Notes: generated from the letters alone by a model not told the origin. A stretch of DNA of 5,612 nt from a virus (IMGVR_UViG_3300045988_001123:1-5612); one strand, 5' to 3'. Positions 1-5,612 are shown, numbered from the stretch's first letter. Translations and numbers: made by a program.

Positions 1-55
1 ACTGGTACAATGCAGCGCAAAGCTGGCAGCAGATGCTCAGTTCTACACAAATGAC
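1..55. repeat. Terminal redundancy copy 1 (identical to 5558-5612), an assembly signature of a circular genome
   Basis: Base-by-base comparison: actggtacaatgcagcgcaaagctggcagcagatgctcagttctacacaaatgac occurs at both ends of the window. Confidence 0.97.
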
Positions 56-200
56 GCCTTACGGACTGCAAAAGGCCTTAACAGAAATCGGAGAAGATAC
101 AAGCAAAGCAATTGACAAAAACGTACCAAAAGGAAGCGAAAAACACAAAAGTAAGGCCGGAGTAACGCACGGCGGAAAAGGCGGTGATATTAAAAAGTGA
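1..200 (+). CDS. VP2 minor capsid / DNA pilot protein, C-terminal part (continuation of 4921-5612 across the circular junction; first full codon at 3; stop TGA 198-200)
   Basis: The frame is open from the window start (W Y N A A Q S W Q Q M L S S T Q M T P Y G L Q K A L T E I G E D T S K ... G G D I K K stop). It is in phase with the ORF that runs off the 3' end once the 55-nt redundancy is collapsed. Total length is 278 aa. Confidence 0.85.
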   Translation, partial: WYNAAQSWQQMLSSTQMTPYGLQKALTEIGEDTSKAIDKNVPKGSEKHKSKAGVTHGGKGGDIKK

Positions 201-1216
201 GTTGTTACAAACCGTTAATACGGCTGTACAACCCGGAAAACAAAGACATAAGCGGGCGGGTGTATTCACTTGCCCGCTTTTCTGAAATATCGGGAAAACA
301 GCTCAAATATGAAGATTTGATGTACAGAAAAGACGTAATGTTGATACCATGCGGACAGTGCATCGGATGCAGAATAAGACAAAGAGAAGACTGGGCAACA
401 CGTATAGAATTAGAAGCACGAGACTATCCGAAAGAAGAAGTGTGGTTTATCACACTAACATATGACGATGACCATGTACCAGGAATGATTGTAAAAACGG
501 GTGAAATCATGCGAAAAGTACAATACGTCTGGAAACCGGGAGAGAAGCGCCCTGAAAGCGTGCAAACGTTACTGTATACTGACGTTCAAAAGTTCTTAAA
601 ACGTCTCAGGAAAGCTAATAGGGGCAAACTACGCTATTTTGTGGCGGGAGAGTATGGAGAACAGACAGCAAGGCCGCATTACCACATGATACTGTATGGA
701 TGGCAACCAACAGACCTGAAACACCTGTACAAGATACAGCACAACGGATACTTCACAAGCCAATGGCTAGCAAACCTATGGGACATGGGTCAAATACAGA
801 TAGCACAAGCAGTGCCAGAAACATATAGATATGTTGCAGGGTACGTCACAAAAAAAATGTACGAGATAGACGGCCAAAAAGCAAACGCATACTATGAGCT
901 AGGGCAACAAAAGCCTTTTGCATGTATGAGTCTCAAGCCAGGCTTAGGAGACCACTATTATCAAGAACACAAAGCGGAAATCTGGAAACAAGGATATATC
1001 CAATGCACAAACGGCAAGCGAGCACAAATTCCGCGTTATTATGAAAAAATGATGGAAGCCGAAAACCCACAAAGATTGTGGAGAATTAAACAGAACAGAC
1101 AAGCAGCAGCAATAGCAGAAAACCGACTAAAGTATGAAAACACAGACTTTGCAGAACAGTGCAAGACAAAAGAAAGGGTGATAAAGAAGCAAATGAAGAA
1201 GAGAGGGACAATCTAA
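197..1216 (+). CDS. VP4 replication initiation protein (HUH rolling-circle endonuclease, Microviridae A/VP4 family)
   Basis: 339-aa ORF with a GTG start. Extended SD AAGGCGGTGAT at 178-188 lies 8 nt upstream. The N-terminus MSCYKP...IPCGQCIGCR matches the typical gokushovirus VP4. Motif 1 is WFITLTYDD, the HUH motif PHYHMILYG has codons 677-685, and the double-tyrosine motif is YVAGYVTKK (Tyr codons 830-832 and 842-844; compare phiX174 A YVAKYVNKK). Confidence 0.92.
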   Translation: MSCYKPLIRLYNPENKDISGRVYSLARFSEISGKQLKYEDLMYRKDVMLIPCGQCIGCRIRQREDWATRIELEARDYPKEEVWFITLTYDDDHVPGMIVKTGEIMRKVQYVWKPGEKRPESVQTLLYTDVQKFLKRLRKANRGKLRYFVAGEYGEQTARPHYHMILYGWQPTDLKHLYKIQHNGYFTSQWLANLWDMGQIQIAQAVPETYRYVAGYVTKKMYEIDGQKANAYYELGQQKPFACMSLKPGLGDHYYQEHKAEIWKQGYIQCTNGKRAQIPRYYEKMMEAENPQRLWRIKQNRQAAAIAENRLKYENTDFAEQCKTKERVIKKQMKKRGTI

Positions 1217-1239: not shown

Positions 1240-1276
1240 AGCCCAGTACCTATCAAGTAAGGTACTGGGCTTTTGT
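1240..1276 (+). terminator. Rho-independent terminator downstream of VP4
   Basis: Perfect stem aGCCCAGTACC (1240-1250) pairs with GGTACTGGGCt (1261-1271). The loop is about 8-10 nt and is followed by TTTTGT. It lies 24 nt after the VP4 stop. Confidence 0.8.
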
Positions 1277-1327
1277 CGTCTAAAGGCTCCATATATCAAA
1301 CTATTCAGTCTATCAAATTACTAAATC

Positions 1328-1381
1328 TATAGCGCACGTGCGCACACGCGCGATAGCGCGCACGCGCGCACGCGCGCTATA
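1328..1381. repeat. GC-rich imperfect palindrome / long hairpin with two alternating purine-pyrimidine tracts
   Basis: Pairing position i with 2709-i gives 21 Watson-Crick pairs out of 25, in blocks of 8 bp, 7 bp, an isolated pair at 1345/1364, and 5 bp, with mismatches at 1336, 1344, 1346 and 1347. The tetraloop is ATAG (1353-1356). The perfect 12-bp palindrome GCGCACGTGCGC lies at 1332-1343. Strict Pu/Py alternation runs over 1332-1352 (21 nt) and 1356-1377 (22 nt). The element is flanked by TATA...TATA. Confidence 0.9.
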
Positions 1382-1476
1382 ATATTAACTTGTTGTAGAA
1401 GTAGTAGTAGGCAATGTGGAAAAGTTGATAAGTGCTAAAATTTAACGTTAAAGCGTAAATAAAAAGCAAAAAACAG

Positions 1477-1588
1477 TGTTGAAAGATTTGTTGAAAATTT
1501 GTTGAAATGTTGAAAGTTCGTCAAAATGACGGAAATCATTGTGCAATATTTTGTTGAAAACCTGTTGAAACTGTTAAAACTGTTGAAA
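1477..1588 (+). repeat. Iteron-like array: 8 direct copies of TGTTGAAA in two clusters
   Basis: Perfect copies start at 1477, 1489, 1500, 1508, 1552, 1563 and 1581. The variant TGTTAAAA starts at 1572. Within-cluster spacing is 8-12 nt. The clusters are separated by a 36-nt spacer containing the palindrome CGTCAaaaTGACG (1519-1531). Degenerate copies may lie upstream (tgttgtagaa 1391-1400, agttgata 1423-1430). Confidence 0.9.
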
Positions 1589-1680
1589 ACGCGCACAGCG
1601 CTAAAAATGAATGGATTAGCCGAGTTCCGCATGCGCTCCACACGGCAAGGCGCTAAAGCGCCATTCAAACCAAAAAACAA

Positions 1681-1709
1681 TTGACGTGTGGCAAAATATA
1701 TGATACAAT
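1681..1709 (+). promoter_or_regulatory. Sigma70/SigA-type promoter with extended -10
   Basis: The -35 is TTGACG (1681-1686). The spacer is 17 nt and ends in TGa. The -10 is TACAAT (1704-1709). The promoter sits about 25 nt upstream of the first gene of the long + strand gene block. Confidence 0.7.
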
Positions 1710-1734
1710 ACACAATAGAAAGCGAGGGAGCAAG

Positions 1735-2124
1735 ATGATTAAAAGCTACATCATGGACACAGACGCAAACGAAAAAGTAGGTCAACACTTTAAAGTGCGA
1801 GAATTTGCATGCAAAGATGGCTCGCAAGTCGTGTTCATCGACAGCTATTTAGTGTCCATTCTGGATATCCTCAGAAACCAAGTCGGTAAGCCAGTATACA
1901 TAAACAGCGGATACAGGACACCGACAAGGAATAAAAAGGTAGGCGGTGCAAAGTACTCATACCACATGCGAGGAATGGCAGCAGACATCCGGATTGAAGG
2001 CATGACCGCAAAAGAAATTGCCGACAAACTGAATAAAATCATTCCGTCTGGATGCGGCATTATCGTGTACAACACATGGGTACACATTGACACACGTACC
2101 AAAACCTACAGAAAGGGGGTATAA
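1735..2124 (+). CDS. Zn-dependent peptidoglycan peptidase, M15 / LAS superfamily (Peptidase_M15_3-like), putative endolysin
   Basis: 129 aa from ATG 1735, with SD GAGGGAG at 1724-1730. Motifs seen: FKVREFACKDG, SGYRTPTRNKKVGGAKYSYHMRGMAAD and WVHIDTR. These give the H-x6-D...H zinc triad (H77 codon 1963-1965, D84, H117). No signal peptide or TM segment is visible. Confidence 0.8.
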   Translation: MIKSYIMDTDANEKVGQHFKVREFACKDGSQVVFIDSYLVSILDILRNQVGKPVYINSGYRTPTRNKKVGGAKYSYHMRGMAADIRIEGMTAKEIADKLNKIIPSGCGIIVYNTWVHIDTRTKTYRKGV

Positions 2125-2602: not shown

Positions 2603-2842
2603 ATGGAACATCTGTACTATGGAGTCTACGACAGCGTGGCAAAATGCTATGCATGGGTAGGTGAGAGCAAAAACAACGGAACCTTTGCACGGATGTGCGA
2701 AACGATGCAGAAGGACAAGAGCACGTTCATCGGGCAATCCCCGACCGATTATGTGGGCTACAGACTGGCGTCCTTCAACGATGAAACCGGCGAGTTTTAC
2801 AACGGCAAAGAAAAAGTGTGGGAGGGCAAGCCGAATGAATAA
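2603..2842 (+). CDS. Conserved gokushovirus small non-structural protein (VP5-like)
   Basis: 79 aa, with the purine-rich SD-like AAAGGAAAG at 2590-2598. The pattern YGVYDSVAKCY...NNGTFARMC...SPTDYVGYRLASFNDETGEF matches the Y/FxVxDxxA...A-R-F...DY-L...G-FDD-TG pattern I recall for the small protein encoded between VP4 and VP3 in gokushoviruses. This is recalled from memory, not searched. Confidence 0.6.
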   Translation: MEHLYYGVYDSVAKCYAWVGESKNNGTFARMCETMQKDKSTFIGQSPTDYVGYRLASFNDETGEFYNGKEKVWEGKPNE

Positions 2843-3233
2843 ACGATACGAGGAAGGGCGAGAGCCCTTCTTTTCAAATTCAGGCGAAAAGCTGCAAAAA
2901 CAATACGTCTGGACAAAGGACGAAAAAGGCCAAGAAAAGCTGCTGGAAACCGAGCCAATCGACATCCAGCAGGAAATTGAAAGCTATTCGGATGAATGTG
3001 ATATCAAAAGCATTGTCCGAAAAGCAAGTTTTGACCCACAGTTTCTGAAAAGTCTGTCGGAGGGAGCATTAAACGATACATACACGGATATTACGGAATT
3101 TCCGCAGAACATTCACGAGTACCATCGAATGGTAGCGACCGCACAGGCAAACGCCATGAAACTCGAAGAACTGCAAAAAATGGCAGCAGCAGAACCGGAA
3201 GCAAAGGAAGAAGAAAAGGAGGAAGAAAAGTGA
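2835..3233 (+). CDS. VP3 internal scaffolding protein
   Basis: 132 aa from ATG 2835, with SD GGGAGGG at 2820-2826. The start overlaps the upstream gene by 8 nt (ATGAATAA). The gene lies immediately upstream of VP1. The motif IESYSDECDIKSIVRK...YTDITEFPQNIHEY is typical of the gokushovirus scaffold. The tail is acidic (EEEKEEEK). Confidence 0.75.
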   Translation: MNKRYEEGREPFFSNSGEKLQKQYVWTKDEKGQEKLLETEPIDIQQEIESYSDECDIKSIVRKASFDPQFLKSLSEGALNDTYTDITEFPQNIHEYHRMVATAQANAMKLEELQKMAAAEPEAKEEEKEEEK

Positions 3234-4882
3234 ATCGAAACAACGAAAGACACTTTAATCAGATTCCAGAAATGAAAGCAAGTCGAACGCGGTTCAACCG
3301 CGACCAGACAATTTTAACAACGTTCGATTCCGGCAAGCTGATTCCATTCTATGTTGACGAGGTATTACCGGGCGATACCTTCAACGTAAATACAGCAGCA
3401 ATTGTTCGAATGAGTACACCGAAGTATCCGGTGATGGACGATGCATTCATTGACTTCTACTACTTCTATTGTCCAAACCGAATCCTATGGGATAATTTCA
3501 AGCAGTTCATGGGAGAAGTAGAGCAAACACCGTGGATGCCGAAAAAAGACTATAAAGTGCCCATGATCGTCATCAACGGAAAAAAAGAAAATCCGGAACC
3601 GTATGAAGGATCAATCCTAGATTACATGGGAGTCCCAACGAAAATTGAAAACATTTTTAAAGTAAACGCACTACCAATCAGAGCATATGTAAAAATCTGG
3701 AATGAATTTTTCAGAGATGAAAACGTAGATAATGCAGCAACCATCAAAACCGATGACAGCAACATAAATTATCAAGACGGCAAAGAAAGCGAAAGCGATA
3801 TAGACCAAATCTTACTAAAAGCAATAGGCGGTGGCAGATGCTTACCAGTAAACAAATTCCATGACTACTTCACAAGCTGCCTACCTTATCCTCAGCGCGG
3901 GCCAGCAGTAACACTGCCGATGGAAGGTAATGCACCAGTATTTGGATATAGCGTCTTCCAAGATAACGTCAAAACAACAGATAAAATAATCCTAAACCAG
4001 CCGTGGCCAGCAAACGGCACAACGGACTTTTCAAACGCGGAAAAAGCGGGAAAACTGACAGGAAAAGGCACAGTCGAAGGAGGTAGCTACATCGCACAAG
4101 CATTCCTAAAAGCAGACCTCAGCAATGTAACCGCAGCAACCATCAACGACTTAAGAAAAGCCGTAGCAGTACAGCAGTACTACGAAGCGCTCGCACGAGG
4201 CGGCAGCCGATACCGCGAACAGGTACAAGCACTGTGGAATGTAACTATCAGCGACAAAACGGTACAGATCCCAGAATACCTGGGCGGCGGCAGATACCAC
4301 ATCAATATCAACCAAATCGTGCAGACAGCGGAAAACGATAAGTCACCGCTGGGCGAAACTGGTGCAATGTCAGTGACGCCGATAAACGAAAGCTCTTTTA
4401 CCAAATCTTTTGAAGAGCATGGATTTGTAATTGGTGTCTGTTGTGTGCGACACAATCGCAGTTACCAGCAAGGCTTGGAGCGTTTCTGGAGTCGAGAAGA
4501 CAGACTGGACTACTATGTACCGCAGTTTGCAAATCTAGGCGAACAGCCCGTAAAGAAAAAGGAAATCATGTTGACCGGCACGACAGCGGACGAAGAAACG
4601 TTCGGTTATCAGGAGGCCTGGGCGGACTACCGAATGAAACCAAACCGGGTAAGCGGCCTCATGCGAAGCAACGCAACAGGCACGTTGGACTTCTGGCACT
4701 ACGCAGACAATTATTCAACCGTACCAACACTGTCGCAAGGCTGGATGCAAGAAGGCAAGACCGAAATTGCACGCACACTCGTCGTGCAGAATGAGCCGCA
4801 ATTTTTCGGCGCTATCCGAGTAGCAAACAAAACCACAAGACGGATGCCGTTGTACAGTGTACCGGGCTTGTACAAACTGTAA
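3230..4882 (+). CDS. VP1 major capsid protein (Microviridae F/VP1 family)
   Basis: 550 aa with a GTG start and SD AAGGAGG at 3216-3222 (7-nt spacing). Hallmarks seen: HFNQIP...RTRFNRDQTILTTFDSGKLIPFYVDEVLPGDTF, HDYFTSCLPYPQRG, INDLRKA...ARGGSRY and IPEYLGGG. Confidence 0.95.
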   Translation: MNRNNERHFNQIPEMKASRTRFNRDQTILTTFDSGKLIPFYVDEVLPGDTFNVNTAAIVRMSTPKYPVMDDAFIDFYYFYCPNRILWDNFKQFMGEVEQTPWMPKKDYKVPMIVINGKKENPEPYEGSILDYMGVPTKIENIFKVNALPIRAYVKIWNEFFRDENVDNAATIKTDDSNINYQDGKESESDIDQILLKAIGGGRCLPVNKFHDYFTSCLPYPQRGPAVTLPMEGNAPVFGYSVFQDNVKTTDKIILNQPWPANGTTDFSNAEKAGKLTGKGTVEGGSYIAQAFLKADLSNVTAATINDLRKAVAVQQYYEALARGGSRYREQVQALWNVTISDKTVQIPEYLGGGRYHININQIVQTAENDKSPLGETGAMSVTPINESSFTKSFEEHGFVIGVCCVRHNRSYQQGLERFWSREDRLDYYVPQFANLGEQPVKKKEIMLTGTTADEETFGYQEAWADYRMKPNRVSGLMRSNATGTLDFWHYADNYSTVPTLSQGWMQEGKTEIARTLVVQNEPQFFGAIRVANKTTRRMPLYSVPGLYKL

Positions 4883-4892: not shown

Positions 4893-4918
4893 AGCCCGGA
4901 GAAATCCGGGCTATTTTT
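4893..4918 (+). terminator. Rho-independent (probably leaky) terminator between VP1 and VP2
   Basis: The stem is AGCCCGG (4893-4899) pairing with CCGGGCT (4906-4912). The loop is agaaat, followed by aTTTTT (4913-4918). Confidence 0.7.
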
Positions 4919-4920
4919 AA

Positions 4921-5612
4921 ATGAGTGGATTATCTGGACTCTTAACAGCACTAAACGTAGCGGGAAACGTAGCGAACACAATCGGAACTTTTGCAGGAGC
5001 AGCTAAAAACATAGCCGGAGCGTTTGGTGGATGGGGGCAAACAGGCAATAGCCAAAGTAGCGGCGGCAGCACAAGCCAAGGCGGCGGACACTCCGAAAGC
5101 GGAAGTCAATCGGGCACCAACGTGCAGCAAGTCAATGACTGGTTAAAACAGGCATACGCATACCAAGGACAAGAAGCAGCCATGCAAGGCAAATACAACA
5201 GCCAGAGTATGTTAAAACAGATGGGCTATAACACGCTACAAGCAATCATGCAAGGCGTATACAACCACATCGAAAACAGTGTAGCAATGAACTACAACAG
5301 CGCAGAAGCACTAGCAAACAGGGACTGGCAAGAGCACATGTCAAACACAGCGTACCAGCGAGCCGTTGAGGACATGAAAAAAGCAGGGATTAACCCTATC
5401 TTAGCATTCGCAAACGGCGGCGCAAGCACACCGGGAGGAAGTGCAGGAACAATCAGTGGAGCAAGTATGGGACTTGCAAGCAGCAGCGCACTAGGAGTAA
5501 GCAGAAGCGGAGGATTTGTGCCTAACGCATACGAAAGCAACAGTTGGAGCAAAAGCGACTGGTACAATGCAGCGCAAAGCTGGCAGCAGATGCTCAGTTC
5601 TACACAAATGAC
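4921..5612 (+). CDS. VP2 minor capsid / DNA pilot protein, N-terminal part (runs off the window and continues at 1-200)
   Basis: ATG 4921 is the first possible start, because an in-frame TAA lies at 4918-4920. I translated the frame by hand and found no stop to 5612. It has a hydrophobic Gly/Ala-rich N-terminus, a G/S/Q-rich low-complexity segment, and the hallmark NTAYQRAVEDMKKAGINPILAF. Confidence 0.88.
   Translation, partial: MSGLSGLLTALNVAGNVANTIGTFAGAAKNIAGAFGGWGQTGNSQSSGGSTSQGGGHSESGSQSGTNVQQVNDWLKQAYAYQGQEAAMQGKYNSQSMLKQMGYNTLQAIMQGVYNHIENSVAMNYNSAEALANRDWQEHMSNTAYQRAVEDMKKAGINPILAFANGGASTPGGSAGTISGASMGLASSSALGVSRSGGFVPNAYESNSWSKSDWYNAAQSWQQMLSSTQM
5558..5612. repeat. Terminal redundancy copy 2 (identical to 1-55)
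   Basis: Same 55-mer as 1-55. The VP2 reading frame is continuous through it. Confidence 0.97.

Follow-up and report, generated by a model that had tools for sequence, protein, structure and literature searches.

Can a phage with a 5.6-kb genome release its progeny by means of a wall-degrading enzyme, and how would such an enzyme meet its substrate? This question is raised by a 129-aa ORF in the viral DNA analysed here, a stretch of 5612 nt that we call the window. An earlier inspection of the DNA without database searches (the sequence-only reading) had described this ORF as an M15/LAS peptidoglycan peptidase behind a strong promoter and had taken it for a host-derived accessory insertion into the backbone of a microvirus. 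We compared these claims with family profiles, structure prediction, related genomes and the literature.

Peptidase gene and its genome

The window turned out to be a complete circle of 5557 nt with a 55-nt exact repeat at both ends. All genes of this genome are on the plus strand. The assignment to gokushovirus-type Microviridae held up in the Pfam search: the Phage_F capsid protein, the VP4 replication initiator, the Chlamy_scaf scaffold and ORF5 were all found on one strand of a circle (Table 1). The nearest GenBank record, Human gut gokushovirus KX513868, is 83.6% identical at the nucleotide level across 87% of the genome. The slots follow each other in the order VP4, non-coding region, peptidase, orfA, orfB, VP8, VP5, VP3, VP1 and VP2. 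The family matches also bear out the position of the peptidase between VP4 and the VP8-like and VP5 genes. The products of orfA and orfB are hydrophilic, conserved in relatives and devoid of a membrane segment. A purine-rich Shine-Dalgarno (SD) sequence is present 5' of orfA, orfB, VP8, VP5, VP3 and VP1 as well as of the peptidase; that of VP4 is weaker, and when the sequence was read none was noted 5' of VP2.

Table 1. Features of the window; positions are counted from its first letter.
Feature	Position	Strand	Basis or remark
VP4 replication initiator	197-1216	+	PF23343
Terminator-like hairpin	1240-1271	+	perfect 12-bp stem and T-run, just 3' of VP4 stop
Conserved non-coding region	1272-1680	+	ssDNA folding z = -5.4
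GC-rich palindrome	1328-1381		in non-coding region
Invariant block TATTAACTTGTTGTAG..GTAGTAGTAG	about 1381-1412		in non-coding region
GTTGAAA repeats	1478-1588		7 exact copies
A-rich tract	1663-1679		immediately 5' of promoter
Predicted sigma-70-type promoter	1681-1709	+	TTGACG-17-TGaTACAAT; -35 TTGACG 1681-1686, 17-nt spacer, TG 1701-1702, -10 TACAAT 1704-1709
Shine-Dalgarno GAGGGAG	1724-1730	+	4 nt 5' of ATG, read from sequence
Peptidase M15_3	1735-2124	+	PF08291, PHROG 894
S58-G59-Y60-R61 (SGYR motif) codons	1906-1917	+	S58 and R61 invariant
H77 (1963-1965) to D84 (1984-1986)	1963-1986	+	H-x6-D zinc-ligand motif, SYHMRGMAAD
H117-I118-D119 codons	2083-2091	+	predicted third zinc ligand and next Asp
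orfA, 40 aa	2126-2248	+	SD and translation; no significant family match
orfB, 75 aa	2253-2480	+	SD and translation; no significant family match
VP8-like basic protein, 40 aa	2464-2586	+	PHROG 10695
VP5	2603-2842	+	PF20577 (ORF5)
VP3 scaffold	2835-3233	+	PF09675 (Chlamy_scaf)
VP1 capsid	3230-4882	+	PF02305 (Phage_F), E = 7.6e-139
Terminator-like hairpin	4893-4912		after VP1
VP2	start 4921, wraps round the circle to 200	+	

The peptidase gene begins with the ATG at 1735, ends with the TAA stop at 2122-2124 and encodes 129 aa. The longest ORF found mechanically occupies 1681-2124 (147 aa) and starts from a TTG, which is part of the -35 hexamer. We rejected this start: the real start is the ATG behind the SD sequence, and the homologues all begin at the same Met. 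The HMM search that had been proposed as a check found the Pfam family Peptidase_M15_3 (PF08291) with E = 4.6e-23 and 81.8 bits, above the curated cutoff of 23.2. The match extends over the whole domain (residues 18-119, profile positions 2-108 of 108). PHROG 894, annotated as 'endolysin', was matched with E = 8.6e-42. All the motifs of an M15/LAS zinc peptidase that the sequence-only reading had ascribed to the ORF are present: S58-G-Y-R61, S75-x-H77-x-x-G80-x-A82-x-D84 and V116-H117-x-D119. We compared 211 homologues, i.e., 128 intact microviral proteins and 83 other homologous ORFs, and found that E23, S58, R61, N66, S75, H77, D84, H117 and D119 are invariant in both groups. Sequence searches detected a single solved structure, the zinc DD-peptidase of Streptomyces albus G (1LBU; E = 2e-5 and 1.7e-7), which was also the sole match of a PDB profile search; H77 and D84 align with its H154 and D161. 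The gene is under strong purifying selection (median dN/dS 0.079 for 41 alleles with at least 85% identity). The protein consists of one catalytic domain, with neither a signal peptide nor a cell-wall-binding domain. Judging by its family and residues, it would cleave peptide bonds of peptidoglycan in a zinc-dependent manner. The equivalog profile of the L,D-endopeptidase MepK (YcbK; NF053624) gave 52.9 bits versus a cutoff of 185. The protein thus appears to be a homologue of MepK only, and the bond specificity of MepK cannot be assumed for it.

The first AlphaFold model of the peptidase was poor. Its pLDDT was 70.6, with values below 50 in the active-site loop, and the underlying alignment contained only homologues that were 84-95% identical. 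Foldseek found nothing for this model at E <= 0.001; the weak best match was VanXYc (M15) with E = 0.08, followed by unrelated folds. A model with a pLDDT of 70 counted against our main explanation. A slightly more diverse alignment of homologues gave a better second model (AF2; pLDDT 83.2, pTM 0.80). The best PDB match of this model was 1LBU (E = 3.6e-4, prob 1.00, rmsd 2.6 Å), and this structural match is moderate, with a TM-score of 0.56 normalised to the query. The next matches were Hedgehog-N, ChiX, VanXYc, VanY, LdcB, MepA, LysECD7 and the T5/RB49 endolysins, and all other credible matches were LAS-fold proteins. In the model, H117 and D119 lie within the final core beta-strand (116-119). 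The predicted fold is therefore that of Hedgehog and the DD-peptidases, with 1LBU on top.

Promoter and upstream region

The predicted promoter 5' of the peptidase was the top site of the genome scan and the only one with 10/12 and the TG. An equally good site occurred in 6% of 1000 dinucleotide shuffles, and the total of promoter-like sites in the genome equals the chance expectation. Within a single genome, such a match is weak evidence, modestly unlikely by chance. We accepted the promoter because it is conserved in relatives. A near-consensus promoter with the -10 ending 18-35 nt 5' of the peptidase ATG was found in 44 of 109 related genomes, and a further 41 of the 109 have one within 400 nt 5' of the peptidase, versus 0 of 98 control coding stretches. 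The proximal promoters mostly combine TTGACA, a 17-nt spacer and TAAAAT, TATAAT or TACAAT; the TG is present in 28 of the 44. Among relatives the hexamers are fixed and the spacer sequence is variable. This confirms that the peptidase is the first gene behind a near-consensus extended -10 promoter, as had been read from the sequence. In the relatives with a distal promoter, an ORF of 43-113 aa lies between it and the peptidase.

The terminator-like hairpin that follows VP4 is nearly invariant in 16 relatives. It probably ends a transcription unit that begins at 1681 and spans the whole genome. In this likely arrangement, a single unit would run round the circle and the peptidase would be the first gene in it. 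orfA and orfB, which directly follow the peptidase, should be co-transcribed with it.

Between this hairpin and the promoter lies a conserved non-coding region that contains, in addition to the elements given in Table 1, the hairpin GGCGCTAAAGCGCC. The region may serve as an origin or in regulation. The Rfam scan gave no credible match. A 52-aa ORF at 1526-1684 was rejected as a gene: it has no SD sequence, lies upstream of the promoter and carries single-base indels among relatives. We also rejected contig L112 as a sign that the iteron module inverts within a population, as this contig is a chimera of two different microviruses.

Distribution, origin and probable host

An accessory gene inserted into a conserved backbone, as assumed in the sequence-only reading, does not agree with the distribution of the peptidase. 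The peptidase gene occupies the same slot in 77 of the 80 nearest VP1 relatives in IMG/VR (at least 71% identity), and the three contigs that lack it are short and cut exactly at that region. In this gut clade the peptidase is effectively core, i.e., fixed, and not sporadic. IMG/VR contains 172 related loci. In a protein search, the homologues fell into at least 1981 clusters (90% identity). The 120 best of these are 84-95% identical to our protein and lie mostly on contigs of about 5.6-5.9 kb. A search with a divergent profile gave at least about 8000 matches, mostly from the same close cluster. The identical protein is encoded on five contigs from independent public metagenome assemblies. 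GenBank labels the gene in this slot 'peptidase M15' or 'similar to peptidase' in KX513868, KX513876, KX513877, MG945383 and MG945430, and the peptidase of MZ821031 is 91.5% identical. In the distant microviruses Dulem virus 195, chicken microvirus mg7_10 and KX513864, the peptidase comes after VP4/VP8 and before VP5/VP3.

The alleles of the peptidase are 43-98% identical on backbones with VP1 72-95% identical. Alleles that are 73-91% identical were found on backbones whose VP1 and VP4 are only about 42% and 38% identical, respectively. Therefore, the module has been exchanged between distant gokushoviruses. Exchange of the peptidase module was already described for another gokushovirus pair (Kirchberger et al. 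2022, PMC9239249).

Outside the microviruses, the closest matches in the phage collection (42-46% identity) came from Faecalibacterium phages and are endolysins with a single domain. In one of these phages, FP_oengus, the endolysin gene is located two genes upstream of an annotated holin, and the M15 homologue of Vibrio phage D478 is likewise part of a lysis cassette. For the cellular search we used one genome per prokaryotic species and a query built from a four-sequence alignment. The best 80 cellular matches were at most 52% identical, and almost all of them belong to (pro)phages of gut Clostridia (Acutalibacteraceae, Oscillospiraceae, Faecalibacterium, Lachnospiraceae). A small same-strand ORF with a transmembrane (TM) segment occurs within 600 nt of the M15 gene at 26 of 41 Clostridia loci versus 5.5 of 41 control positions. 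Such an enrichment is what marks holin-endolysin cassettes. A neighbour-joining tree, built without bootstrap, placed 126 of the 128 microviral proteins in one pure clade and 81 of the 83 others in a second one. The separation speaks against a recent insertion of host origin; these sequences fit an old capture followed by diversification inside the microviruses. Since the gene is core, the microviral alleles stand apart and no cellular homologue exceeds 52% identity, there are no recent insertion boundaries to be defined by the synteny comparison that had been suggested.

One of the cellular matches is an integrated gokushovirus of the cultured isolate Oscillibacter sp. PC13; it lies at about 141.5-146.4 kb of NZ_FOXE01000003.1, a contig of 177 kb. 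The prophage has the order tyrosine integrase, VP4, VP8, peptidase, VP5, VP3, VP1, VP2. It is flanked by an SLH-domain glycosidase on one side and, on the other, by an amidase and an ATPase that we take to be RadA-like from its AAA, DnaB_C and Lon_C Pfam domains. Our literature search found no report of an Oscillibacter gokushovirus prophage. This prophage could serve as an experimental system, and it supports Bacillota hosts. Consensus -35/-10 promoters and strong SD sites are not typical of Bacteroidota. From the consensus promoter, the strong SD sequence and the PC13 prophage, we infer a Bacillota host (Oscillospiraceae- or Faecalibacterium-like) rather than a member of Bacteroidota. Roux et al. 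(2012, PMC3394797) speculated likewise on Bacillota hosts.

Release of progeny and known systems

We consider it probable that the gene encodes a small single-domain M15_3/LAS peptidoglycan peptidase that was captured long ago, became fixed in the clade and serves the release of progeny. A gokushovirus ancestor would have acquired an enzyme of the same kind as the endolysins of the tailed phages of gut Clostridia. In the present genome, it would be transcribed first, from the conserved sigma-70-type extended -10 promoter, and translated from a strong SD sequence. Progeny would be released when the enzyme cleaves stem peptides or cross-links in the host wall. Most likely, the clade would thus lyse its hosts by a muralytic enzyme rather than by an inhibitor of the phiX174 E type. 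The endolysin role is suggested by the annotation of the tailed-phage counterparts as endolysins and by the apparent location of cellular homologues beside holin-like genes. By analogy, it is also consistent with the same proposal of Roux et al. (2012) and with the muralytic activity of Ebor Gp7, a protein of another microvirus.

Two observations count against this role, and the first concerns the membrane. A catalytic domain homologous to the muralytic endolysins of tailed phages is present, but a canonical holin-endolysin system also has a holin, a small protein with 1-3 TM segments, in the same genome and usually next to the endolysin. As the sequence-only reading had stated, we found neither a holin nor a signal sequence. 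Among the coding-strand ORFs of at least 25 aa in the window, the 19-residue Kyte-Doolittle mean reaches a maximum of only 1.22, and none of them is a holin candidate. No ORF of this size in any plus-strand frame could form a TM segment, which includes proteins of the phiX174 E type. The N-terminus of the peptidase, MIKSYIMDTDANEKVGQHFKV, is hydrophilic, with no signal peptide or SAR domain in the protein, and its sole mildly hydrophobic stretch (residues 32-50) is a core helix of the modelled fold. The Gly/Ala-rich N-terminus of VP2 is the second most hydrophobic stretch. orfA and orfB were rejected as holins: they are hydrophilic and match no family, and their sequences look like coiled coils. 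When the highest hydropathy value of each of 137 related genomes was taken, the median was 1.30. ORFs above 1.6 come mostly from three over-long contigs (L036, L090 and L126) or from Dulem virus 195, whose hydrophobic ORFs are numerous and include one of 35 aa that is annotated after VP2; isolated ones occur in five other genomes (L015, L027, L032, L059 and L135). The small ORFs between promoter and peptidase in relatives are all hydrophilic, with no holin among them. Since no holin or TM ORF is found in the window and in close relatives, the tailed-phage enzyme was apparently acquired without its holin. With no holin, signal peptide or SAR domain, the endolysin reading lacks the membrane step, and a cytoplasmic endolysin without a known membrane crossing makes an incomplete lysis mechanism. 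The second observation is that the gene is promoter-proximal. Its product would be made as soon as infection begins, and such early synthesis is unusual for a lysis enzyme. Lysis of such phages thus becomes a concrete question: does the enzyme use an unknown export route or does it act on cytoplasmic precursors?

The latter possibility does not require an exported endolysin or a holin. The peptidase would stay in the cytoplasm, where its target would be the stem peptide carried by UDP-MurNAc-pentapeptide or lipid II. Wall synthesis would be starved and the growing cell would lyse, as an enzymatic counterpart of the 'protein antibiotics' E of phiX174 and A2 of Qbeta. The stem peptide is common to the wall precursors and the mature wall, and VanX and VanXY are cytoplasmic M15 enzymes that cut it in the precursor. 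VanXYc and VanY, which cleave precursors in the cytoplasm, are among the fold relatives of our model. The lack of a holin, signal peptide or TM ORF in the window or in close relatives also agrees with this reading, and an early protein from a promoter-proximal gene would suit a slow-acting block of synthesis. However, the closest homologues are tailed-phage endolysins that lie beside holins and act on the mature wall, and all catalytic and substrate-facing invariant residues are common to our protein and these endolysins. In addition, we know of no phage that lyses by enzymatic destruction of precursors. We therefore regard action on precursors as unlikely. If true, it would be an enzymatic form of the strategy by which phiX174 E and RNA phages block wall synthesis. 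In a weaker form of the reading without export, a structural protein such as VP2 may double as the factor that breaches the membrane.

It is still less probable that the peptidase is a virion-associated hydrolase for entry, which would open a thick wall of the Gram-positive type for DNA delivery by a tailless capsid. Such a role would suit the likely Bacillota hosts, and Ebor Gp7 was detected in virions in trace amounts by mass spectrometry (PMC11980548). However, our protein is a free 129-aa enzyme with no homology or fusion to structural proteins, a T=1 capsid is short of room, an enzyme inside it would not reach the wall, and the tailed-phage homologues are in lysis cassettes and not among tail genes. 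Finally, the movement of the module between distant backbones would also be expected of a selfish or host-modifying passenger (wall remodelling, superinfection exclusion) with no part in the lytic cycle, lysis being left to an unrecognised factor, but this is very improbable: no complete genome of the clade lacks the gene, purifying selection on it is strong, it comes first after the main promoter, and a genome of 5.6 kb leaves no room for passengers.

The preferred reading, an endolysin-like peptidase of old capture, agrees with what has been described for other microviruses. Roux et al. (2012, PMC3394797) found a PF08291 peptidase in five gut Gokushovirinae and six Alpavirinae. They noted its affinity to Faecalibacterium and Bacteroides genes located beside holins, inferred horizontal transfer and proposed an endolysin role. 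Acquisition of bacterial peptidases by some gokushoviruses was reported by Kirchberger and Ochman (2020), and in the work of Kirchberger et al. (2022, PMC9239249) peptidases are standard lysis-associated accessory genes of microviruses. Marine roseophage isolates of the Occultatumvirinae carry M15 peptidases (PMC11499846). For Gp7 of Ebor, a 'Tainavirinae' microvirus, peptidoglycan degradation was shown by zymogram (mBio 2025, PMC11980548). In our literature search, we came across no experiments on gokushovirus M15 proteins as agents of lysis. Thus, an M15 peptidase in gut gokushoviruses has been known since 2012, and the novelty suggested by the sequence-only reading does not stand, given that report, the GenBank labels and more than 170 microvirus contigs in IMG/VR; its caveat that the domain may not be unprecedented was correct. 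The view that microviruses lyse without a muralytic enzyme is true for phiX174-like phages, but not for many gut gokushoviruses and alpaviruses.

Compared with the M15_3 proteins of gut Gokushovirinae and Alpavirinae, our peptidase shows nothing different in kind. The Pfam family, the size and the slot after VP4 are the same, the nearest non-microviral relatives are likewise from Faecalibacterium and other Clostridia, and the endolysin hypothesis is shared as well. The endolysins of FP_Toutatis and FP_oengus, cultured phages of gut Clostridia, are about 137 aa long, show 42-46% identity over the full length and have the same invariant residues. They differ by a 7-residue insertion before the last His and by their position in lysis cassettes that include a holin (in FP_oengus it is annotated as such), whereas the microviral gene has no holin partner. 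1LBU, a zinc D-Ala-D-Ala carboxypeptidase, shares the H-x6-D...H zinc site and the core fold with our protein. However, it is a secreted protein of 213 aa with an N-terminal wall-binding domain and 27% identity over 95 aligned columns, and its substrate specificity cannot be transferred to the microviral peptidase. Ebor Gp7 and the M15 proteins of Occultatumvirinae are microvirus wall hydrolases too. Their phages belong to other microvirus subfamilies with alphaproteobacterial hosts, and Ebor has a 45-aa membrane protein.

phiX174 E and other single-gene lysis proteins likewise come from very small phages without a holin-endolysin pair. Protein E, a membrane protein whose gene overlaps another in a different frame, inhibits MraY, whereas the candidate described here is a soluble enzyme from a genome with no TM ORF. 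The window leaves the overall picture of microvirus lysis unchanged and adds another variant to it. The gain is modest: in an abundant gut clade, the peptidase is fixed, promoter-proximal and under strong purifying selection.

Genome form and exchange of the peptidase module

The first 55 nt of the window (1-55) are repeated exactly as its last 55 nt (5558-5612). A terminal direct repeat of this kind is what the assembly of a circular genome leaves behind; the circle here measures 5557 nt. The VP2 gene, which starts at 4921, crosses the junction of the circle and ends at 200. Between the stop codon of the capsid gene VP1 and the start of VP2, we found a second terminator-like hairpin (see the table), which suggests that transcription is attenuated after the capsid gene, ahead of the VP2/VP4 genes.

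The peptidase module and the remaining genome recombine independently of each other. Several related genomes, L026, L037 and L044 among them, carry peptidase alleles that are 86-91% identical to that of the window, on backbones in which VP1 is only about 42-45% identical and the replication initiator VP4 about 39%. KX513868 (Human gut gokushovirus) has the closest backbone (83.6% nucleotide identity), yet its peptidase is only 62% identical to that of the window.

The conserved region between VP4 and the peptidase

VP4 and the peptidase are separated by 518 nt of non-coding DNA (1217-1734), which in more than 15 relatives is conserved at least as well as the genes. The folding of this region as single-stranded DNA is far above that of shuffled sequences (z=-5.4), and an Rfam scan of it gave no match. 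It contains several structured or repeated elements and may serve as an origin of replication or in regulation.

Features of the window in the non-coding region between VP4 and the peptidase and between VP1 and VP2
Feature	Position	Location and details
Perfect 12-bp hairpin	1240-1271	518-nt non-coding stretch
Palindrome, GC-rich, alternating purine/pyrimidine	1328-1381	518-nt non-coding stretch
Nearly invariant block TATTAACTTGTTGTAG..GTAGTAGTAG	about 1381-1412	518-nt non-coding stretch
GTTGAAA repeats, 7 exact copies	1478-1515 and 1553-1588	two clusters; spacing within a cluster 8-12 nt
52-aa ORF, probably not a gene	1526-1684	inside the conserved non-coding region, upstream of the promoter
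GGCGCTAAAGCGCC hairpin		518-nt non-coding stretch, 5' of the promoter
Second terminator-like hairpin (8-bp stem, 6 GC pairs, T-run)	4893-4912	between the VP1 stop (4882) and the VP2 start (4921)

The 52-aa ORF was considered as a gene and is probably not one: it lacks a Shine-Dalgarno sequence, lies 5' of the promoter and shows paired +1/-1 single-base indels among relatives, though comparable translations are found in other related genomes.

The AACTTGTTGYAG block and the GTTGAAA repeats form a module (1381-1590 in the window; for example, 2300-2520 in the related genome L015 and 300-500 in L026). In related genomes, the orientation of this module is the same as that of the genes in 93 cases and opposite in 26, six of the latter being on the close backbone (L008, L015, L039, L048, L052 and L056). 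The element would then function in either orientation in a phage with single-stranded DNA. The distant backbone examined, that of L026, has the module at another place, upstream of VP4. Identity between the two backbone types is about 79% for the module but only about 42% for VP1. In one contig of 10.7 kb (L112, IMGVR_UViG_3300045988_004182), two different gokushoviruses are joined, one of each backbone type; this contig is probably an assembly chimera.

Peptidase neighbors in relatives and an integrated gokushovirus

In about one third of the related genomes (for example, L019, L048, L020, L055, L071, L052 and L038), the conserved promoter is separated from the peptidase by a hydrophilic ORF of 43-113 aa, which ends 4-15 nt upstream of the peptidase ATG. 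Judging by their translations, these ORFs appear to be of several unrelated sequence types, and no membrane segment was found in them.

An integrated gokushovirus is present in Oscillibacter sp. PC13, a cultured Oscillospiraceae isolate, at about 140.3-146.4 kb of a 177-kb contig (NZ_FOXE01000003.1; L184:4646-10712). After a tyrosine integrase, encoded on the opposite strand, come VP4, VP8, the M15 peptidase, VP5, VP3, VP1 and VP2. One flank of the prophage holds a GH18-SLH protein, the other a RadA-like ATPase and an amidase. In the collection of papers searched, none was found that described this prophage.

More distant carriers of the peptidase

Dulem virus 195 (PP511409), a peptidase-bearing microvirus more distant from the window, has an annotated 35-aa ORF after VP2 (L084:2593-2700), one segment of which, LLLFFMVLIVLSCVPGLIL, is strongly hydrophobic. 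This ORF is possibly a holin-like partner, absent from the clade of the window. It may also be an artefact of composition, because hydrophobic alternative-frame ORFs are abundant in this genome.

The homologue in the tailed phage bajarodcaudo virus 4 (L088:1992-2633) extends about 85 aa further at its C-terminus, and this additional part resembles, by eye, a peptidoglycan-binding domain. In contrast, the microviral peptidases consist of the catalytic domain only.
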